From assembly GCA_965249045.1 (NCBI GenBank), contig OZ252213.1:1399904-1463903 (forward strand): a stretch of 64,000 nt of DNA, written 5' to 3'. The stretch's first letter is position 1. The number at the start of each line of letters is the position of its first letter. Shown here piece by piece: positions 1 to 14,592 of this stretch. The notes below the pieces were generated by a model. It worked only from the letters and a program-made list of their open reading frames with translations. It had not been told where the DNA came from and made no database searches. Origin of the DNA: Thermodesulfobacteriota bacterium (lineage in GTDB: Bacteria > Desulfobacterota_D > UBA1144 > Nemesobacterales > Nemesobacteraceae). The translations under genes were made by a program, and so were the position numbers.

Positions 1-1048
1 TATCCGCATGCCCGCATTTGTGGCATGTCTGACTTGTGTATGCGGGATTTACTTCTATCAGTCTCCCGCATTTGTACTCAAGATTCTTTCTTATCTCCCC
101 GAAGGCGGTATCAAGTATTGCCCTGTTAAGTTCCGCCTTCTGCTTCACGTTCTTTCCGGGATTCTCTATCGTGCCCTTTGCAGAAGCCGTCATGTTCCTC
201 AACTTTAAGTCTTCCACTATCACGGTTCCGCATTTCCCGGCAATCTCCTTTGTGGTCTTGTGAATCCAGTTCTTGCGGATATTGGCTATCTTCCTGCTCA
301 CCTTAGCAAGTTTCTTCTTTGTGTCCTTCCGCCTGTTAGACCCCTTGACCTGCCTTGCCATCCTTCGCTGATAGCGCTTACGCCTTGCTTCTTTCTTCCT
401 TAAATCGGGCAGGAAGTAGAAATGTCCATCCGAAGTGGCAACTTGGCGAACGTTCATGTCAACACCAAGAACCTCGCTGTCGTCCAATCTCCGTTCTGCC
501 TCGATTTCATAGAAGACAAAGGCACGCCACCTGTGCCCGTCATGGCGAAGCACAACCTGCTTGGGCGCGCAGTCCTCCCAAGGATTGCCACCCCTGCGGG
601 TGAGTCTCACCCAACCCACCAATGGAATGCGAAGCAGAGAGTATTTTCTATCAATATTTTTTATTCTGAAGTTTTCCTTGCTAGGGAGTGTAAAACTAGG
701 AGTAGTCCTTCTCCTGCTTCTAGGCTTCGGGAAGCCCTTTTTGCCAGCAATTGCCTCTTTCAACGCGTCCGCAAAATACTTGAGAGTATGTTTAATAGGA
801 TTGGCGGGAAGCTCCCTAAGCCAGTGCGTCCTATGCCTTAGCTTGGTGAACTCCACTCCGAGACTGAAATAACTGGTAGATGGCCCTTCTCCCTCGCCGT
901 CCCTGAACTTCTGGTAGTCGCTAAGGTTCTTCTCCCGAAAATGGTTCCAGACGTATCTACAAGCTCCCGCTATCTGGAACATCTTCCTTGCCTTCGCCTT
1001 AGAGGTAGGCAGAACGACAAACTCTACAGTACGTATTTCTTTAATCAT
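1..1048 (-). CDS. tnpB: TnpB-like transposon-associated protein (IS200/IS605 family OrfB, RuvC-like nuclease with zinc finger). It is partial: the 3' end lies beyond the window start.
   Basis: Manual reverse-complement translation starting at the ATG complementary to 1046-1048 gives an uninterrupted protein: MIKEIRTVEFVVLPTSKAKARKMFQ...LGVDMNVRQVATSDG...IHKTTKEIAGKCGTVIVEDLKLRNMTASAKG...NRAILDTAFGEIRKNLEYKCGRLIEVNPAYTSQTCHKCGHAD. It shows the RuvC-I Asp (GVDMN), the RuvC-II Glu (IVEDL) and the first CxxC of the zinc finger. There is an in-frame stop 4 codons upstream of the ATG. The plus-strand ORFs listed for 8-872 are antisense artefacts. Confidence 0.85.
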   Translation of the reverse strand, partial: MIKEIRTVEFVVLPTSKAKARKMFQIAGACRYVWNHFREKNLSDYQKFRDGEGEGPSTSYFSLGVEFTKLRHRTHWLRELPANPIKHTLKYFADALKEAIAGKKGFPKPRSRRRTTPSFTLPSKENFRIKNIDRKYSLLRIPLVGWVRLTRRGGNPWEDCAPKQVVLRHDGHRWRAFVFYEIEAERRLDDSEVLGVDMNVRQVATSDGHFYFLPDLRKKEARRKRYQRRMARQVKGSNRRKDTKKKLAKVSRKIANIRKNWIHKTTKEIAGKCGTVIVEDLKLRNMTASAKGTIENPGKNVKQKAELNRAILDTAFGEIRKNLEYKCGRLIEVNPAYTSQTCHKCGHAD

Positions 1049-1211
1049 TAAAGTATATTATGTCCAGTTATCATGTGATTGGGTAAATAAGTCCCTTATA
1101 CTTTCATAAAATTCCGTTCTCAACTGTGCATATGAAAAAATTCAAATCCTAGCACTGGTCTTGGAAAAATGATTCATTGTGAAAAGAATACGGATTATGG
1201 AAAGAGAAAGA

Positions 1212-1244
1212 GCGGAGAATAGCCGATATTCTCCGCTCTTTTAG
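1212..1244. terminator. GC-rich perfect hairpin (gagcggagaata-gccga-tattctccgctc) followed by TTTT. It is either a bidirectional rho-independent terminator for the luciferase-like oxidoreductase gene or the subterminal hairpin of the IS200/605-type left end.
   Basis: A 12-bp perfect stem is seen directly. T-runs lie on both sides. It sits 40 bp downstream of the stop of the 1257..2192 gene and about 165 bp upstream of the tnpB start. Confidence 0.5.
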
Positions 1245-1256
1245 TCTACAGAAAAC

Positions 1257-2192
1257 TTAAGAATAAGTTTTAGCTGTTATCTCCATTACCTCTATATTAC
1301 TCTGTTTTCCTACCGGTCCGGGAACCAATATGGCAAGATCGACTCCAGCTGCGAAATGCTCTTCAAGTTTTTTCTTACAGTTATCTGGCGTACCGGCAAG
1401 CGCTATTGAATCTATGAGTTCGTCAGTGAAAACTTCGGCCGGGTTCGCTCCGTCCTGCACCTGGTCGATTATATCACCGAAACCTATGTTTCTTATGAGT
1501 CTCTGGTAAAACGGAAACCTGGCATATGGACCTAGCCCCCTCTTGGCTGCGGCAACGGCCGCGGCTTCATCATCCGAGACAAACGATGGGATGCCGTTTG
1601 TAATTGATACAGCTGAAGGGTCTCTCTCCGCTTTCGCGGCGCCCACGGCAACCTGCTCTTTTAGGGTTGCCACATAGGCGGGAGGACAGAGGTATGGCAT
1701 TATACCGTCGGCAACCTCTCCGGCCAGCTCCGCCGCGGCTTTGGTAAGTCCAGCTATATAGACTGGAAGATCGGGTACTTTCCTTTTAAGAGAAAGCCTG
1801 GGAGATGTTCCGTCAGCAAACGCTTTCACTTCGCCCACATAGTTTCTCATCGCCTCAATCGGATCTCCCATATCTATATCGTATCTATTGTTAACGGGCT
1901 TGTGACTGACTCCGAGTCCGAGAATCATTCTTCCGTCCGTTATTTCCTGTATCGTAAGCGCTGTCGCGGTAGCAACTACGGGCTGGCGCATGTATATGTT
2001 AGCTATCCATGTTCCAACGTTTATTCTCTCAGTGCACTCCGCAAACACCTGAGCGTTTGTTATGGCGTTGTAAGGCGGCACCTCCGGAGAGAGAATGCCG
2101 TCAAAACCCGCCTCCTCAGTAATTCTTGCGAGCTCTCTCATATCGCTCACGCTGCACCCCCAAACCGGTGAAGTTGTCGCAATTTTTCCCAT
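1257..2192 (-). CDS. Luciferase-like (LLM class) flavin/F420-dependent oxidoreductase
   Basis: The 311-aa ORF has a TIM-barrel LLM-type sequence (GFDGILSPEV..., ...ILGLGVSHKP...). An AAGGAGG Shine-Dalgarno sits 5 nt before the ATG. Confidence 0.8.
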   Translation of the reverse strand: MGKIATTSPVWGCSVSDMRELARITEEAGFDGILSPEVPPYNAITNAQVFAECTERINVGTWIANIYMRQPVVATATALTIQEITDGRMILGLGVSHKPVNNRYDIDMGDPIEAMRNYVGEVKAFADGTSPRLSLKRKVPDLPVYIAGLTKAAAELAGEVADGIMPYLCPPAYVATLKEQVAVGAAKAERDPSAVSITNGIPSFVSDDEAAAVAAAKRGLGPYARFPFYQRLIRNIGFGDIIDQVQDGANPAEVFTDELIDSIALAGTPDNCKKKLEEHFAAGVDLAILVPGPVGKQSNIEVMEITAKTYS

Positions 2193-2213
2193 TTTAGCCT
2201 CCTTGAGTTTTTT

Positions 2214-3113
2214 TCAGTACTGGTTTACTACATCCCTGTAATAATCTGGACGAAGGGAAGCTTCGTCTCTGGTCTTTAACACTTCTTTTATCTCTTTAAG
2301 AACTCTCTTTTTTTCCTCAGGGAATTTCGCCTTGACAGGAAGATAATTTGATATGTGGTTTGAATAGAAGTAACCGTTTGAAAGTTCCGTATTTTCAACT
2401 ATGGTCTCAAGTTCTTCTATCATCCGAAATTTGTCCGGAAGCTCAAAGAGGCCTTCCTGCCATTGCTTGTAAATCGGTGCTCCGGGACGAAGTTGAAGGG
2501 AAAGAGCTCCGACATATTCAGGATCACATTCCGTAAGAAGTTTTCCGGTAGCCAGTGCGTGCTCACTGCTCCTCTCCTTCCCGCCGATGCCGAGGAGGAC
2601 CATGACCGAATTCATTATCCCCGAGGCTTTCAGTTTTCTTGAGGCTTCAACGGTCTCGGCAAAATTCGCTCCCTTCTCTATTCTCTCGAGTACTACATCA
2701 TCTCCGCTTTCAAAACCTATGTAAACCATGCTGAGACCATTCTCTCGAAGACGCGTGAGGTCTTCAATCGATTTTCTGAGTATGTCGCCCACGTTTGCGT
2801 ACACGGTAATTCTCTCAAGATCAGGGGTTTTTTCATGAAGATAATCCATTATTTCCATAAGTTTCGCCGTAGAAAGCACGAGTGCGTTACCATCGGCTAT
2901 AAAAACCCTTCGCTCAAGTGATCCCCTTTTCGCCGCGGTATCGATAATCTCTCTGATTTCGCCCATAGGTCTTACCCTGAATTTCTGGGTTTCCTTTCTG
3001 TACATGGCGCAATATGTGCATTTGTTGTGGGAACAGCCGACAGTGGCTTGCAGAATAAAACTTTTATGTTCGCTTGGGGGACGGAAAAAGGGAGTTACGT
3101 ATTCAATCATCAC
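2214..3113 (-). CDS. Radical SAM domain protein of unknown specific function
   Basis: 299 aa with a canonical CX3CX2C motif near the N-terminus (CSHNKCTYC) and a GFESGDD...IEKG motif. Its stop lies 21 bp upstream of the start of the luciferase-like gene, so the two are probably co-transcribed. Confidence 0.85.
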   Translation of the reverse strand: MMIEYVTPFFRPPSEHKSFILQATVGCSHNKCTYCAMYRKETQKFRVRPMGEIREIIDTAAKRGSLERRVFIADGNALVLSTAKLMEIMDYLHEKTPDLERITVYANVGDILRKSIEDLTRLRENGLSMVYIGFESGDDVVLERIEKGANFAETVEASRKLKASGIMNSVMVLLGIGGKERSSEHALATGKLLTECDPEYVGALSLQLRPGAPIYKQWQEGLFELPDKFRMIEELETIVENTELSNGYFYSNHISNYLPVKAKFPEEKKRVLKEIKEVLKTRDEASLRPDYYRDVVNQY

Positions 3114-3306
3114 CCTAAGAACTTAACAAAATTTTGAGGTCTGTTCAACAAGACTTTGCAATGGCGTAAAGCATAGGTTATTCTTGCGCCATAATGTTTG
3201 ACCTCGAACCACACGAAAAAGAAGGCCTGAAGTACATACTTGGTGTACCGATACTAATCGGACTAATAATGGTCATCGCTTCTCTGACGCACATCGTCCT
3301 TGCTCC

Positions 3307-3780
3307 CTAGCTTGTGCCCCAGCGGATTATCCGGAGGATGAGTTCGTGGATTTCGATCTCTACTCCACTATTATCCCTAAAAAGATATCCCCCGTTTTTC
3401 TTCTCTTCCCAAGTAACTCCGAGAAGTTTCAGATTTTTCTTCGGTTTTTGGGGATCGGGATCGATTTTCCTTCCGACAAAGGTAACGGTGTTTTCGCCCC
3501 CGTAAAGTACCATAATCAGTTTTGAAGTTCCAAAAAGGAGCAAAAAACCCGGAGTTTTTGCTTCGGTACCGAAAACCGCCTGCATAAAACCCGGAGGCGG
3601 AGCAATCACGCTGATTGTGTCTCGGCCGTATTCTTTGTTTAATGACTCCACATATGTTTCGAAGCTACGGCAGAGAAAATCCGAAGCTCTCTTGCTTTCC
3701 CCGCATGTTTCATCCGAGTCGACTGAGATTTTCTCTTTTTCGTAAAACTCAGCAATCCACGGCTGTTTTTTCATTTCCAC
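3307..3780 (-). CDS. Hypothetical protein (157 aa)
   Basis: Long ORF with coding-like composition. It lies upstream of, and on the same strand as, the radical SAM/oxidoreductase pair. I recognise no family. Confidence 0.45.
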   Translation of the reverse strand: MEMKKQPWIAEFYEKEKISVDSDETCGESKRASDFLCRSFETYVESLNKEYGRDTISVIAPPPGFMQAVFGTEAKTPGFLLLFGTSKLIMVLYGGENTVTFVGRKIDPDPQKPKKNLKLLGVTWEEKKNGGYLFRDNSGVEIEIHELILRIIRWGTS

Positions 3781-4045
3781 GGCACATCACCTTAACCTTC
3801 AGCTTTCAATCTGGAGTCTGAAGACAAGAAAGCTTCATCGTTCTCAGCTCTGAAAAACCATCCGCAAACCGATAGATTTTCTCATTTTTCACTGAAAACG
3901 CTTCAAATTCTTCGCGTAATATAATAATATATGCAACAAGGGGAAACAAAAGATAGACAAACTCTACGGAAACACCGCAGGCCTCACCAGAAGCGACCTG
4001 AAGAACATACTTAGAATATACAAGAGGAAAATTCCTCAGGACCGC

Positions 4046-5671
4046 TTGGTAACCCCTGAATTAATCCGCACTCTTTTAGCCCTCTCGGGCGAATTTAAAA
4101 GAACAATGACGGTGCTTATCGACCGCAAGGGAAAGATAAGGTTTGTTTTCATCGGAGAACCTTGCGATTTTCCTTTTGAAAAATTGCTCGGAAGGAGGAG
4201 AAGAGCGAAGTACAGACTCAGGGGACTTCGTGCTGTAAGAACCAATCTTAAGGGATCAGGCCTTACCAATTCAGACCTGACGACCCTGGCAAACGAAAGA
4301 CTCGATCTGGTGGCTTCGGCGTCTATCAGTCAAAGCGGTTCAGCGGGGCGCCTTGAATACGCTAATCTCATCCCACCGGACGAAAAGAACCCGGCGAAGT
4401 GGGAGATTTCAAAATTTTCGGATCTAGGTCGCATAGAGATTAATCTTGAGCAGGAAATAAACAGCATAGAACAAGCTCTCAGGCGCGCTTTTCTCAAAAA
4501 CGGAGGCAAGGAAAACAGAGAAGGAGTGATACTGGTGGGATTCAGCACTAAATTCCGCTACCTGACTGAAAAATCTCTTGAGGAACTTGACTCTCTGGCT
4601 CTTTCAGCCGAAAAAGTGGTGCTCGACAAGGTGGCTCAGGTAAGAAAAAAGGTTGATCCCCGTTATCTTGTCGGGAAAGGAAAACTCAGGGAAGTCGCTC
4701 TTCATGCTAAACACCTGGGAGCGGATACCATAATTTTTGACACCGAACTTACCCCTGCTCAGGCAAACGCAATCGGAGAGGAATCCGGCCTTGATATAAT
4801 GGACCGCAGTCAGCTTATAATACAGATATTCGCAAAACACGCTAAGACAAATGAAGGAAAAATCCAAGCCAGACTCGCCGAATTACAATACAACCTGCCG
4901 AGACTTAAAGGCAAAGGCACGACCTTCTCACAGCTTGGCGGTGGAATAGGTACTAGAGGCCCGGGAGAAAAGAAGCTTGAACAGGAAAGAAGAAACATAC
5001 GAAAACAGATCGAGCAGCTTGAAAAACAGACTGAAAATCTCTGCAGAAGAAGGGAACACACAAGGAAAAACAGGAAAACCTCAAGAATTCCAACCCTTTC
5101 CTTTATCGGATACACAAATGTCGGCAAATCCACGCTTTTTAACCGTCTGACAAAATCCTCGATTGTTACACAAGACAAGCTTTTCTCAACCCTGAATCCA
5201 ACCACAAGAAAAGTCATGCTTCCGGGAGGAAAACAGATACTCATGACTGATACGGTGGGCTTTATAAGCAAGCTTCCCCAGGAACTCATAAACGCGTTTA
5301 GAGCCACGCTTGAGGAAATAGGCGAAGCCGACCTGCTGCTTCATGTAGCCGACGCGAGCGATCCAGAGGTCAGAGAAAAAATAGATTCGGTAATCAAGAT
5401 AATGGAGTCCATGGAATGTGAGAACATTCCCAGTATTCTTGTGTTCAATAAAACGGACGAAGCGGACGCGCATACACAAGCGACACTTCGCGAGGCGTTT
5501 CCTCAAGTTCCACTTGTGTCGGCAAAAAAAGGAACGAATTTCAGGGAGTTACTTCTACATATAGAGAAAGTTGTTGAAAAAATCGAAGCTGATGCGAAAG
5601 TCGGGGGTTTTAACCCGGAAGAAAAGCCCGAAGACACTGTCTCGCTTCCGTTATTACACAGTTCCTTTTAG
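4046..5671 (+). CDS. hflX: GTPase HflX. The start is uncertain: the frame is open from a TTG at 4046, which implies an N-terminal extension of about 150 aa.
   Basis: HflX N-domain and G-domain motifs are present (GYTNVGKSTLFN, DTVGF, NKTD). No in-frame stop occurs from 4046 to 5671. Candidate internal starts are the ATG at 4106 and the GTG at 4535 preceded by AAGGAG-N8. Confidence 0.85.
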   Translation: MVTPELIRTLLALSGEFKRTMTVLIDRKGKIRFVFIGEPCDFPFEKLLGRRRRAKYRLRGLRAVRTNLKGSGLTNSDLTTLANERLDLVASASISQSGSAGRLEYANLIPPDEKNPAKWEISKFSDLGRIEINLEQEINSIEQALRRAFLKNGGKENREGVILVGFSTKFRYLTEKSLEELDSLALSAEKVVLDKVAQVRKKVDPRYLVGKGKLREVALHAKHLGADTIIFDTELTPAQANAIGEESGLDIMDRSQLIIQIFAKHAKTNEGKIQARLAELQYNLPRLKGKGTTFSQLGGGIGTRGPGEKKLEQERRNIRKQIEQLEKQTENLCRRREHTRKNRKTSRIPTLSFIGYTNVGKSTLFNRLTKSSIVTQDKLFSTLNPTTRKVMLPGGKQILMTDTVGFISKLPQELINAFRATLEEIGEADLLLHVADASDPEVREKIDSVIKIMESMECENIPSILVFNKTDEADAHTQATLREAFPQVPLVSAKKGTNFRELLLHIEKVVEKIEADAKVGGFNPEEKPEDTVSLPLLHSSF

Positions 5672-5754
5672 CTTTCTTAAAACCTGCACACAAAAAAGGG
5701 GATGCCCGTTTCCACGAACATCCCCTTTTTTATACTGTTTTTACTTCCAGATCT

Positions 5755-14344: not shown

Positions 14345-14399
14345 AACTTGCGGAGAATGCTATTGAATAGTTAGGGAATTATATACTTGTTACACAAGA

Positions 14400-14427
14400 T
14401 TGCAACTGTTTGACAGATCGGTATAAT
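14400..14427 (+). promoter_or_regulatory. Sigma70-like promoter for the DUF59-apbC genes (TTGCAA, 16-nt spacer, TATAAT)
   Basis: Read directly: -35 ttgcaa at 14400-14405 and -10 tataat at 14422-14427. It lies in the divergent ispG/DUF59 intergenic region. Confidence 0.4.
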
Positions 14428-14592
14428 GTAACGATGATAAAGACTTACAAATGCCGTGCTAGAATCTCCAAGCCAAGTCATAAGGCGTTATCCCGCATAT
14501 TTGATTGGGCCCCGGAGTAGAGAGCAAAGGATGACGCTTATCAGCGCGTCTGGTATGTGCGGAGAACAAAAAAAAGAAGGAGGCAAAAAATC

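Follow-up and report, generated by a model that had tools for sequence, protein, structure and literature searches.

The left edge of a 64,000-nucleotide stretch of a Thermodesulfobacteriota genome (contig OZ252213.1, positions 1,399,904 to 1,463,903; hereafter the window, meaning this whole stretch) holds an intact-looking gene for a TnpB protein, a predicted RNA-guided nuclease. Comparison with related genomes makes it highly probable that this tnpB is the only gene of a 1295-bp transposase-less element with ends of the IS1595 family, which would be moved in trans as cargo, that the window copy is most likely immobile, and that a strong hairpin nearby is an upstream terminator outside the element. 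A TnpB gene as such is ordinary; of interest here are the IS1595-type architecture, a right end that appears to have two uses, and a mode of targeting that involves start codons and resembles the use of a target-adjacent motif (TAM).

The gene had been proposed in an earlier note, made from the letters of the window alone, as an unannotated minus-strand TnpB of at least 349 aa with its RuvC-I Asp, RuvC-II Glu and first zinc-finger CxxC intact, and in these respects our analysis confirmed it. Positions 1-1048 of the minus strand hold an uninterrupted frame of 349 codons that opens with an ATG at 1048 and continues past the window edge. Its product scores 198 bits against NCBIfam NF040570 'RNA-guided endonuclease TnpB family' (cut-off 100) and exceeds the Pfam cut-offs for OrfB_IS605 (71 bits) and Cas12f1-like_TNB (35 bits). 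RuvC-I D197 (GVDMN), RuvC-II E279 (VIVEDL) and the first CxxC, C342/C345, lie within the window; in an alignment of 11 sequences, with relatives down to 32% identity, D197/E279/D371 and C342/C345/C361/C364 are all invariant. To follow the gene leftwards we collected contigs that encode exactly the neighbouring oxidoreductase protein, which yielded eight loci with 10 kb on each side (retrieved loci used for comparison carry L-numbers). Two of these, L003 and L006, are 100% identical to window 1-5000, and L006 positions equal 12193 minus the window position. The full tnpB of L006 (11145-12368) encodes 407 aa and includes RuvC-III (NADTNAAMN, D371) and the second CxxC; the C-terminal RuvC-III and zinc-finger region, where the earlier note had foreseen that a frameshift or premature stop might appear, contains neither in this genome. 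The right end and guide-RNA region that the same note had expected beyond coordinate 1 were also recovered there, the gene ending 176 nt and the element 200 nt past the edge.

What delimits the element is the comparison of about 40 related copies from Candidatus Dadabacteria genomes and from metagenomes. Among 39 loci from a scan with one genome per species, about 35 encode the same TnpB family at 74-100% identity, nearly all in metagenome-assembled genomes of Candidatus Dadabacteria (NCBI label Thermodesulfobacteriota) and often with 4-7 copies per genome; in the 64-kb window itself, tblastn and blastn found no second copy of the element or its flanks. When the flanks of these copies are aligned, similarity begins sharply at GGGAATTATATAC..., 33-57 nt before the tnpB ATG, and breaks off at ...GTATATAATTCCC right after the tnpB stop. 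Over about 24 nt, each end is the inverted repeat of the other in some 35 copies (consensus GGGAATTATATAC-TTryTTACCCA). Directly outside them stands an 8-bp direct repeat whose sequence differs between copies and which matches at 8/8 positions in 18 independent insertions (three of them metagenomic) and at 7/8 in 5 more. Elements range from 1264 to 1331 bp, with 1295 bp in the window genome. Three copies at different sites of one chromosome are 98.6-99.1% identical and therefore point to recent transposition. To a generic repeat finder the flanking inverted repeat is only one among many weak pairs; it becomes convincing through the cross-copy comparison.

Empty sites fix the boundaries to the nucleotide. 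In the window the next genes on the same strand are those for an LLM-class (F420-type) oxidoreductase (1257-2192) and a radical-SAM protein (2214-3113); at the other side, just 72 bp separate the tnpB stop from a Proton_antipo_M (NuoN-like) gene. In three relatives with LLM oxidoreductases of 88-93% identity (L248, L250, L252) the NuoN-like gene comes straight after that of the oxidoreductase, without an element, and the site reads as a single AAGTATAA (…TTTTATGA-AAGTATAA-TTAGGG…). At the same place the window genome has AAGTATAA, the 1295-bp element and AAGTATAA again. By this alignment the element has its left end at window 1095, flanked by the duplication at 1096-1103, and its right end 200 nt past the edge, which gives the following features, all on the minus strand:

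1..1048: tnpB, codons 1-349 of 407, with its stop 176 nt past coordinate 1.
1049..1095: left end of the element, with the 5' leader, a promoter-like site and a shortened left inverted repeat (from the similarity boundary and the empty sites).
1079-1052: promoter-like site ATCACA-16-TATACT (a consensus match only).
1080..1095: left terminal inverted repeat GGGACTTATTTACCCA, 8 nt shorter than the element's own right repeat.
1096..1103: left 8-bp target duplication AAGTATAA, 8/8 identical to the right copy, which lies past the window edge.
1104..1107: ATGA, candidate TAM, directly 5' of the duplicated target (from the logo of 20 empty sites).
1207..1241: perfect 15-bp hairpin (1207-1221/1227-1241, 5-nt loop), terminator-like and outside the element (from folding and conservation).

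The target AAGTATAA(T), at window 1096-1103 and again in the right flank at L006 12393-12401, resembles the -10 box of the NuoN-like gene. Through the duplication this -10-like AAGTATAA stands once more beside the right end, so that a host promoter element may survive the insertion.

The earlier note had classed the gene as an IS1341-like element of the IS200/IS605 family, with the nearby hairpin, at 1207-1241, as a possible left-end subterminal hairpin. An element of this kind would be mobilised as single-stranded DNA by a Y1 TnpA acting in trans. Part of this stands: the element is TnpB-only, with no tnpA between tnpB and the LLM oxidoreductase gene. A single tnpB open reading frame (ORF) without tnpA, a weak match to NCBIfam IS200_TnpB (134 bits against a cut-off of 425) and a short conserved motif 5' of the insertion would also suit such an origin. 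However, IS200/IS605 and IS607 elements have neither terminal inverted repeats nor target duplications (PMC13565253, PMC3627910), and the inverted repeats of about 24 bp with 8-bp duplications, together present in 23 copies, thus place the element outside the IS200/605 (IS1341-like) group. Between the conserved motif and the left end, moreover, stand the 8 bp of the duplication, and the hairpin, 112 nt away from the insertion in the window, occurs at empty sites as well. We regard the IS200/IS605 assignment as refuted by the empty-site comparison and give it next to no credence. IS607, whose TnpA partner is a serine recombinase, is ruled out by the same repeats and duplications, and NF038280 IS607_TnpB scores 94 bits against a cut-off of 350.

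The hairpin itself is real, with a 15-bp stem instead of the 12-bp one first described (folding free energy -24.4 kcal/mol, z = -5.1 against shuffles), and what had to be given up is its place at the 5' flank of the element and its role as a transposon end. It starts 15 nt past the LLM stop codon and is followed by the tail CUUUCUCUUUCC, which is U-rich but interrupted, and which the terminator consensus scan did not list. All three element-free relatives keep it, the stem being preserved by compensatory changes (GAGCGGAGAAT/ATTCTCCGCTC, GAGCGGAAAAT/GTTTTCCGCTC and GGAGTGGAGAAT/ATTTCCACTCC). Because of its start so near the stop, its U-rich tail and its retention at empty sites, we assign it to the LLM oxidoreductase gene as an intrinsic-terminator-like structure.

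The 8-bp duplications and the repeats starting with GG pointed to IS1595, whose members are 'usually flanked by 8-bp TSDs' (target-site duplications; PMC8101967). In viral contigs 120 loci matched GGGAATTATATAC-N5-TA; at that collection size, by a rough estimate, single matches to this 15-base pattern are expected by chance. Inverted pairs of matches occur in 9 of the 120 loci, and the pairs that were measured delimit elements with perfect 8-bp duplications. Some are insertion sequences (ISs) with the same repeats (L062, 1882 bp; L107, 1697 bp), and others are miniature inverted-repeat transposable elements (MITEs) of 300-480 bp at six loci (L085, L089, L092, L095, L100, L059), of which L089 and L100 hold the same insertion, leaving five independent ones. 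The ORFs inside the matching ISs hit Pfam DDE_Tnp_IS1595 (1.4e-41) and Zn_ribbon_IS1595, and tblastn detects an IS1595-type transposase in at least 20 of the 120 scanned loci. The IS of L055 (11188-13766) encodes such a transposase, whose homologues NCBI names 'IS1595 family transposase', together with a putative DNA methyltransferase-like passenger ORF of 288 aa; the IS of L062 (1971-3852) carries a PAPS-reductase-like passenger (Pfam PF01507). The outer 13 nt of the TnpB-element and IS1595 repeats are identical, and between the L055 repeat and the right repeat of the Dadabacteria TnpB element in L015 the identity extends over 23 nt. The same repeats also surround TnpBs of just 29-41% identity (L051, L171, L172/L190 and L231, the last with the perfect duplication AAAAATAT), which indicates that the association with IS1595-type ends spans more than one TnpB lineage. 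On this comparative evidence we classify the element as a transposase-less IS1595-type element with tnpB as cargo; given that it contains no transposase gene, it can only be a non-autonomous relative, and we infer that it is mobilised in trans by an IS1595 transposase.

Such a gene was looked for without success inside the element, in the 64-kb window and within 3-4 kb of every Dadabacteria TnpB copy, and neither an IS1595 transposase nor a composite element with transposase and tnpB appeared in 80 metagenome and 31 viral TnpB loci. The transposase inside the L045 copy was considered as a partner and rejected: it belongs to an unrelated nested IS5-like element (4228-5705; DDE_Tnp_1/DUF772, 380 aa) with its own repeats, GAGCCTCTTGCAAAATT, which sits in the 3' end of the TnpB element. 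The outer TnpB element of L045 retains its perfect duplication, AAAGCAAC. In a plasmid collection, relatives were found at less than 38% identity only, annotated as IS200/605 TnpB, and these did not inform the ends.

That no transposase occurs within 3-4 kb in any of about 150 related loci while the copies are clearly mobile could also be explained if TnpB, with its RuvC/RNase-H fold, were itself the transposase and the element autonomous. The same ends, however, flank both IS1595 ISs with a DDE transposase of their own and MITEs that contain no ORF, and in the relevant passages of PMC3627910 and PMC13565253 TnpB is cited as dispensable for transposition in every tested element. We consider an autonomous element very unlikely and retain mobilisation in trans.

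The window copy itself shows signs of damage. Its left repeat, GGGACTTATTTACCCA, lacks 8 nt (ATTATATA) that are present in its own right repeat (GGGAATTATATACTTGTTTACCCA) and in every paralogue, and all ten orthologous copies share both the deletion and the site. A +1 frameshift in an A-run at codon 117 interrupts the gene in the orthologues L001, L004 and L038, and L004 has in addition lost the first CxxC through a 36-bp deletion of codons 332-343. Since 8 bp of the left repeat are gone and all ten close genomes have the copy at the same site, it is probably immobile and slowly decaying, with an ORF that is still intact in the window genome. One fixed site in ten genomes, and an ORF intact in most of them in spite of the damaged repeat, might instead suggest that the copy has been domesticated as a host gene, for example a TldR-like RNA-guided regulator, and is no parasite remnant. 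Fixation, however, says little among genomes that are just 1-1.4% divergent; the window copy has kept its catalytic D/E/D residues, three orthologues are frameshifted and L004 is without its first CxxC. Exapted TldR proteins have reportedly lost the catalytic D/E/D residues, in work ascribed to Wiegand and colleagues in 2024 and cited in PMC13565253. Domestication appears very improbable to us, and decay of an immobile copy remains our preferred explanation.

The last ~230 nt of the element contain helices that are conserved across 33 copies and that suggest an omegaRNA, the guide RNA of TnpB. The segment GAACCGTGAAATTGAT is almost invariant at all codon positions in these copies, though it encodes part of the variable C-terminal tail, and its region pairs with the outermost right repeat (AAUUGAUAC with GUAUAUAAUU). 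For the proposed helices 93% of cells can pair, compared with 28-40% when the partners are slid against each other, and a variable inner stem shows compensatory changes, with six pairs changed on both sides. With RNAalifold, indels in the raw MAFFT alignment hid the variable hairpin around columns 150-180. A search of the element and its flanks against Rfam gave no family match, and a permissive E-value yielded noise only. These data are most simply read as a right inverted repeat that also supplies the 3' arm for the terminal stem in a putative omegaRNA.

A target motif emerges from the left flanks. Empty sites reconstructed from 20 copies give a logo in which the four bases to the left (-4 to -1) read A/W/G/R and none of the 80 cells is a C; the duplication itself opens with A at 19 of the 20 sites, and the right side is without information. 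Seven IS1595 elements and MITEs with the same repeats and no TnpB do not show the motif A-W-G-R|A. A one-sided motif is not expected from the symmetrical synaptic complex of a DDE transposase. Being one-sided, and in exactly the place required of a TAM should the guide come from the right flank, A-W-G-R is likely the TAM of this TnpB family.

The motif also coincides with start codons. In six of the 23 copies the insertion falls on the start codon of a host ORF 201-504 codons long. Nine copies have an ATG, preceded by GAGG and 24-25 nt away from the right end, that shares the frame of the host ORF downstream; whether this distance is 24 or 25 varies together with the offset of the insertion, 3 or 4 nt. 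The displaced host ATG opens a leader of 10-18 codons, with a stop that either overlaps the tnpB ATG (TAATG) or precedes it by 12-24 nt. The copies on start codons are those of L010, L013, L015, L021, L032 and L034 (also L014, L027 and L028), with junctions at about 2950-3000 and 4240-4250, and there the in-frame right-end ATG adds some 8 residues (MVSQVYNS...) to the host protein.

These observations give substance to a second interpretation, which keeps the same architecture and reads A-W-G-R|A not as a TAM but as the product of selection for, or targeting of, insertion at host start codons, the element borrowing the host promoter and ribosome-binding site (RBS) and handing an in-frame ATG back to the host gene. 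In its favour are the six copies on start codons, the nine with an in-frame right-end ATG, the co-variation of ATG distance with offset and the short leader that the host ATG opens before tnpB. On the other side, the window copy, which has ATGA at the place of the motif and lies 48 nt upstream of the NuoN-like start, and at least four further copies (L022, L045, L168, L231) have an ATG there without a long host ORF. We rate this interpretation as the lesser possibility, though one to be taken seriously. As a TAM of the form ATGR would itself favour start codons, the two readings are not mutually exclusive.

Taking both together, we put forward, as a speculation that we ourselves think somewhat doubtful, a distinct class of prokaryotic OMEGA elements (obligate mobile element-guided activity): TnpB/omegaRNA cassettes fused with IS1595 ends, whose right repeat would be both transposase site and 3' stem of the guide RNA, and which would be specialised on host start codons. 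A short leader coupled to tnpB would be expressed from the promoter, RBS and ATG of the host; translation of the host protein, lengthened by about 8 residues, would resume at an in-frame ATG behind a Shine-Dalgarno-like GAGG in the right end, and an ATGR TAM would tie RNA-guided homing to uninserted start codons.

For the family as a whole we propose the following course of events. An IS1595-family DDE transposase encoded elsewhere would move the element in trans by cut-and-paste, with tnpB and its 3' non-coding RNA riding as cargo. The transcript would run past the right repeat into the flank, the guide beginning at the first flanking base (junction ...GUAUAUAAUUCCC|flank), a step modelled on known TnpB/omegaRNA systems. 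Such a guide would match the uninserted allele, that is, the target duplication plus the right flank, with A-W-G-R directly 5' of the target acting as TAM; the right end (..TTCCC), a non-TAM, would protect the occupied site. The guide predicted for the window copy has no meaningful match in the window.

Several points weigh against this scheme. The transposase gene on which it depends was not located in any Dadabacteria genome, and none of the best 120 homologues of the L055 transposase bears a Dadabacteria label, in a listing without the organism labels to decide the matter. The outer helix of the putative omegaRNA coincides with the repeat bound by the transposase, so its conservation cannot be credited to the RNA alone, and the ends of the omegaRNA, the guide length and the TAM are all deduced. 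In many copies A-W-G-R overlaps host start codons (ATG-R) and could reflect selection for insertion there instead of a TAM. Finally, the frameshift of L001, L004 and L038 may be real decay or a homopolymer or assembly error of long-read sequencing.

TnpB is the ancestor of Cas12 and a compact scaffold for genome editing. To our knowledge, its biology in prokaryotes has been worked out only for the scarless IS200/605 and IS607 elements; TnpBs linked to DDE transposases have so far been reported briefly, for other IS families. A well-populated, recently mobile TnpB-only family with IS1595 ends offers a concrete DDE-linked case, in which dozens of natural pairs of insertion and empty site can be used to ask how RNA-guided homing works with a cut-and-paste transposon that forms duplications. 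One DNA segment would have two uses, as transposase site and as guide-RNA stem, harmless insertion at gene starts is a possible strategy, and the family suggests a purine-rich TAM in a Cas12n-like TnpB. If true, a start-codon class of OMEGA elements would show TnpB cooperating with a DDE transposon, an arrangement otherwise typical of eukaryotic Fanzors; since IS1595 is the prokaryotic relative of the eukaryotic Merlin transposons (PMC8101967), the family also bears on the origin of Fanzor-type arrangements. For annotation, a TnpB without TnpA should not be called IS1341-like by default, and nearby hairpins need an empty-site check.

Other remnants with related ends were observed. At window 14374-14520 (plus strand) there is a second, solo left end with a perfect GGGAATTATATAC, followed after about 60 nt by a 28-codon fragment (MIKTYKCRARISKPSHKALSRIFDWAPE*) that resembles the N-terminus of a different TnpB; neither a right end nor a duplication is present close by, the flank to its left, ATTG|AATAGTTA, agrees with A-W-G-R|A, and partial matches exist in L018 and L023. 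L012 and L039 (4247-4280) carry an extra solo remnant of the right repeat 33 nt past the right end, and thus have tandem right ends. A 540-bp segment of L002 and L005 (494-1033) lies between related inverted repeats (GGGGATTATCTAC... / ...CTATATAATTCCC) and holds an AhpC/Redoxin gene on the opposite strand, without a clear duplication; L006 lacks it and has 281 nt of unrelated sequence in its place.

Compared with known systems, the element shares with the IS1341 group a single tnpB ORF of about 400 aa and, at the 3' end, a putative structured RNA with conserved helices that would read into the flank. IS1341 elements differ in having no inverted repeats or duplication, in their subterminal hairpins and in inserting directly 3' of a tetra- or pentanucleotide. 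The IS1595 ISs and MITEs have in common with it repeats that start with GGGAATTATATAC and are identical over up to 23 nt, 8-bp A/T-rich duplications and passenger genes. Unlike the ISs, however, it has no transposase gene, its passenger is an RNA-guided nuclease whose putative RNA overlaps the right repeat, and the target sites are strand-asymmetric.

Further precedents are six TnpB branches that have linked DDE transposases and, in every case, inverted terminal repeats (Altae-Tran et al. 2023, PMC10691335); solo TnpBs that share those ends were reported beside them and are presumed to move in trans. Like these, the present family has TnpB inside symmetrical inverted repeats, with its 3' end near the transposon end; the partner family here is IS1595, with 8-bp duplications, and in our ~150 loci no composite of transposase and tnpB lies between the same repeats. 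A 2026 review names ISL2, IS630 and IS1031 as DDE partners of TnpB (PMC13565253). IS1595 is not named as a partner in the main texts of PMC10691335 and PMC13565253, and a literature search for IS1595 with TnpB gave nothing relevant; the family may overlap with one of the six branches. Fanzor1 nucleases are carried in eukaryotic DDE transposons (Mariner, IS4, MuDR, Sola; PMC3627910), and the likeness lies in a TnpB-type nuclease as cargo of cut-and-paste transposons with inverted repeats and duplications, although the element here is prokaryotic, TnpB-sized and without eukaryotic features.

Among solved structures the best match by sequence is Cas12n (type V-N; RdCas12n, PDB 9J09), over the RuvC half (E = 1.2e-33) and including the insertion MTASAKGT-ENPGKNV-QK-LNR. 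In contrast to Cas12n there is no CRISPR array here and the protein has 407 aa instead of 540, and its N-terminal half aligns better with ISDra2 TnpB (8H1J). Cas12n uses rare A-rich protospacer-adjacent motifs (PMC12216341), and these are compatible with the purine-rich TAM proposed for the present family.

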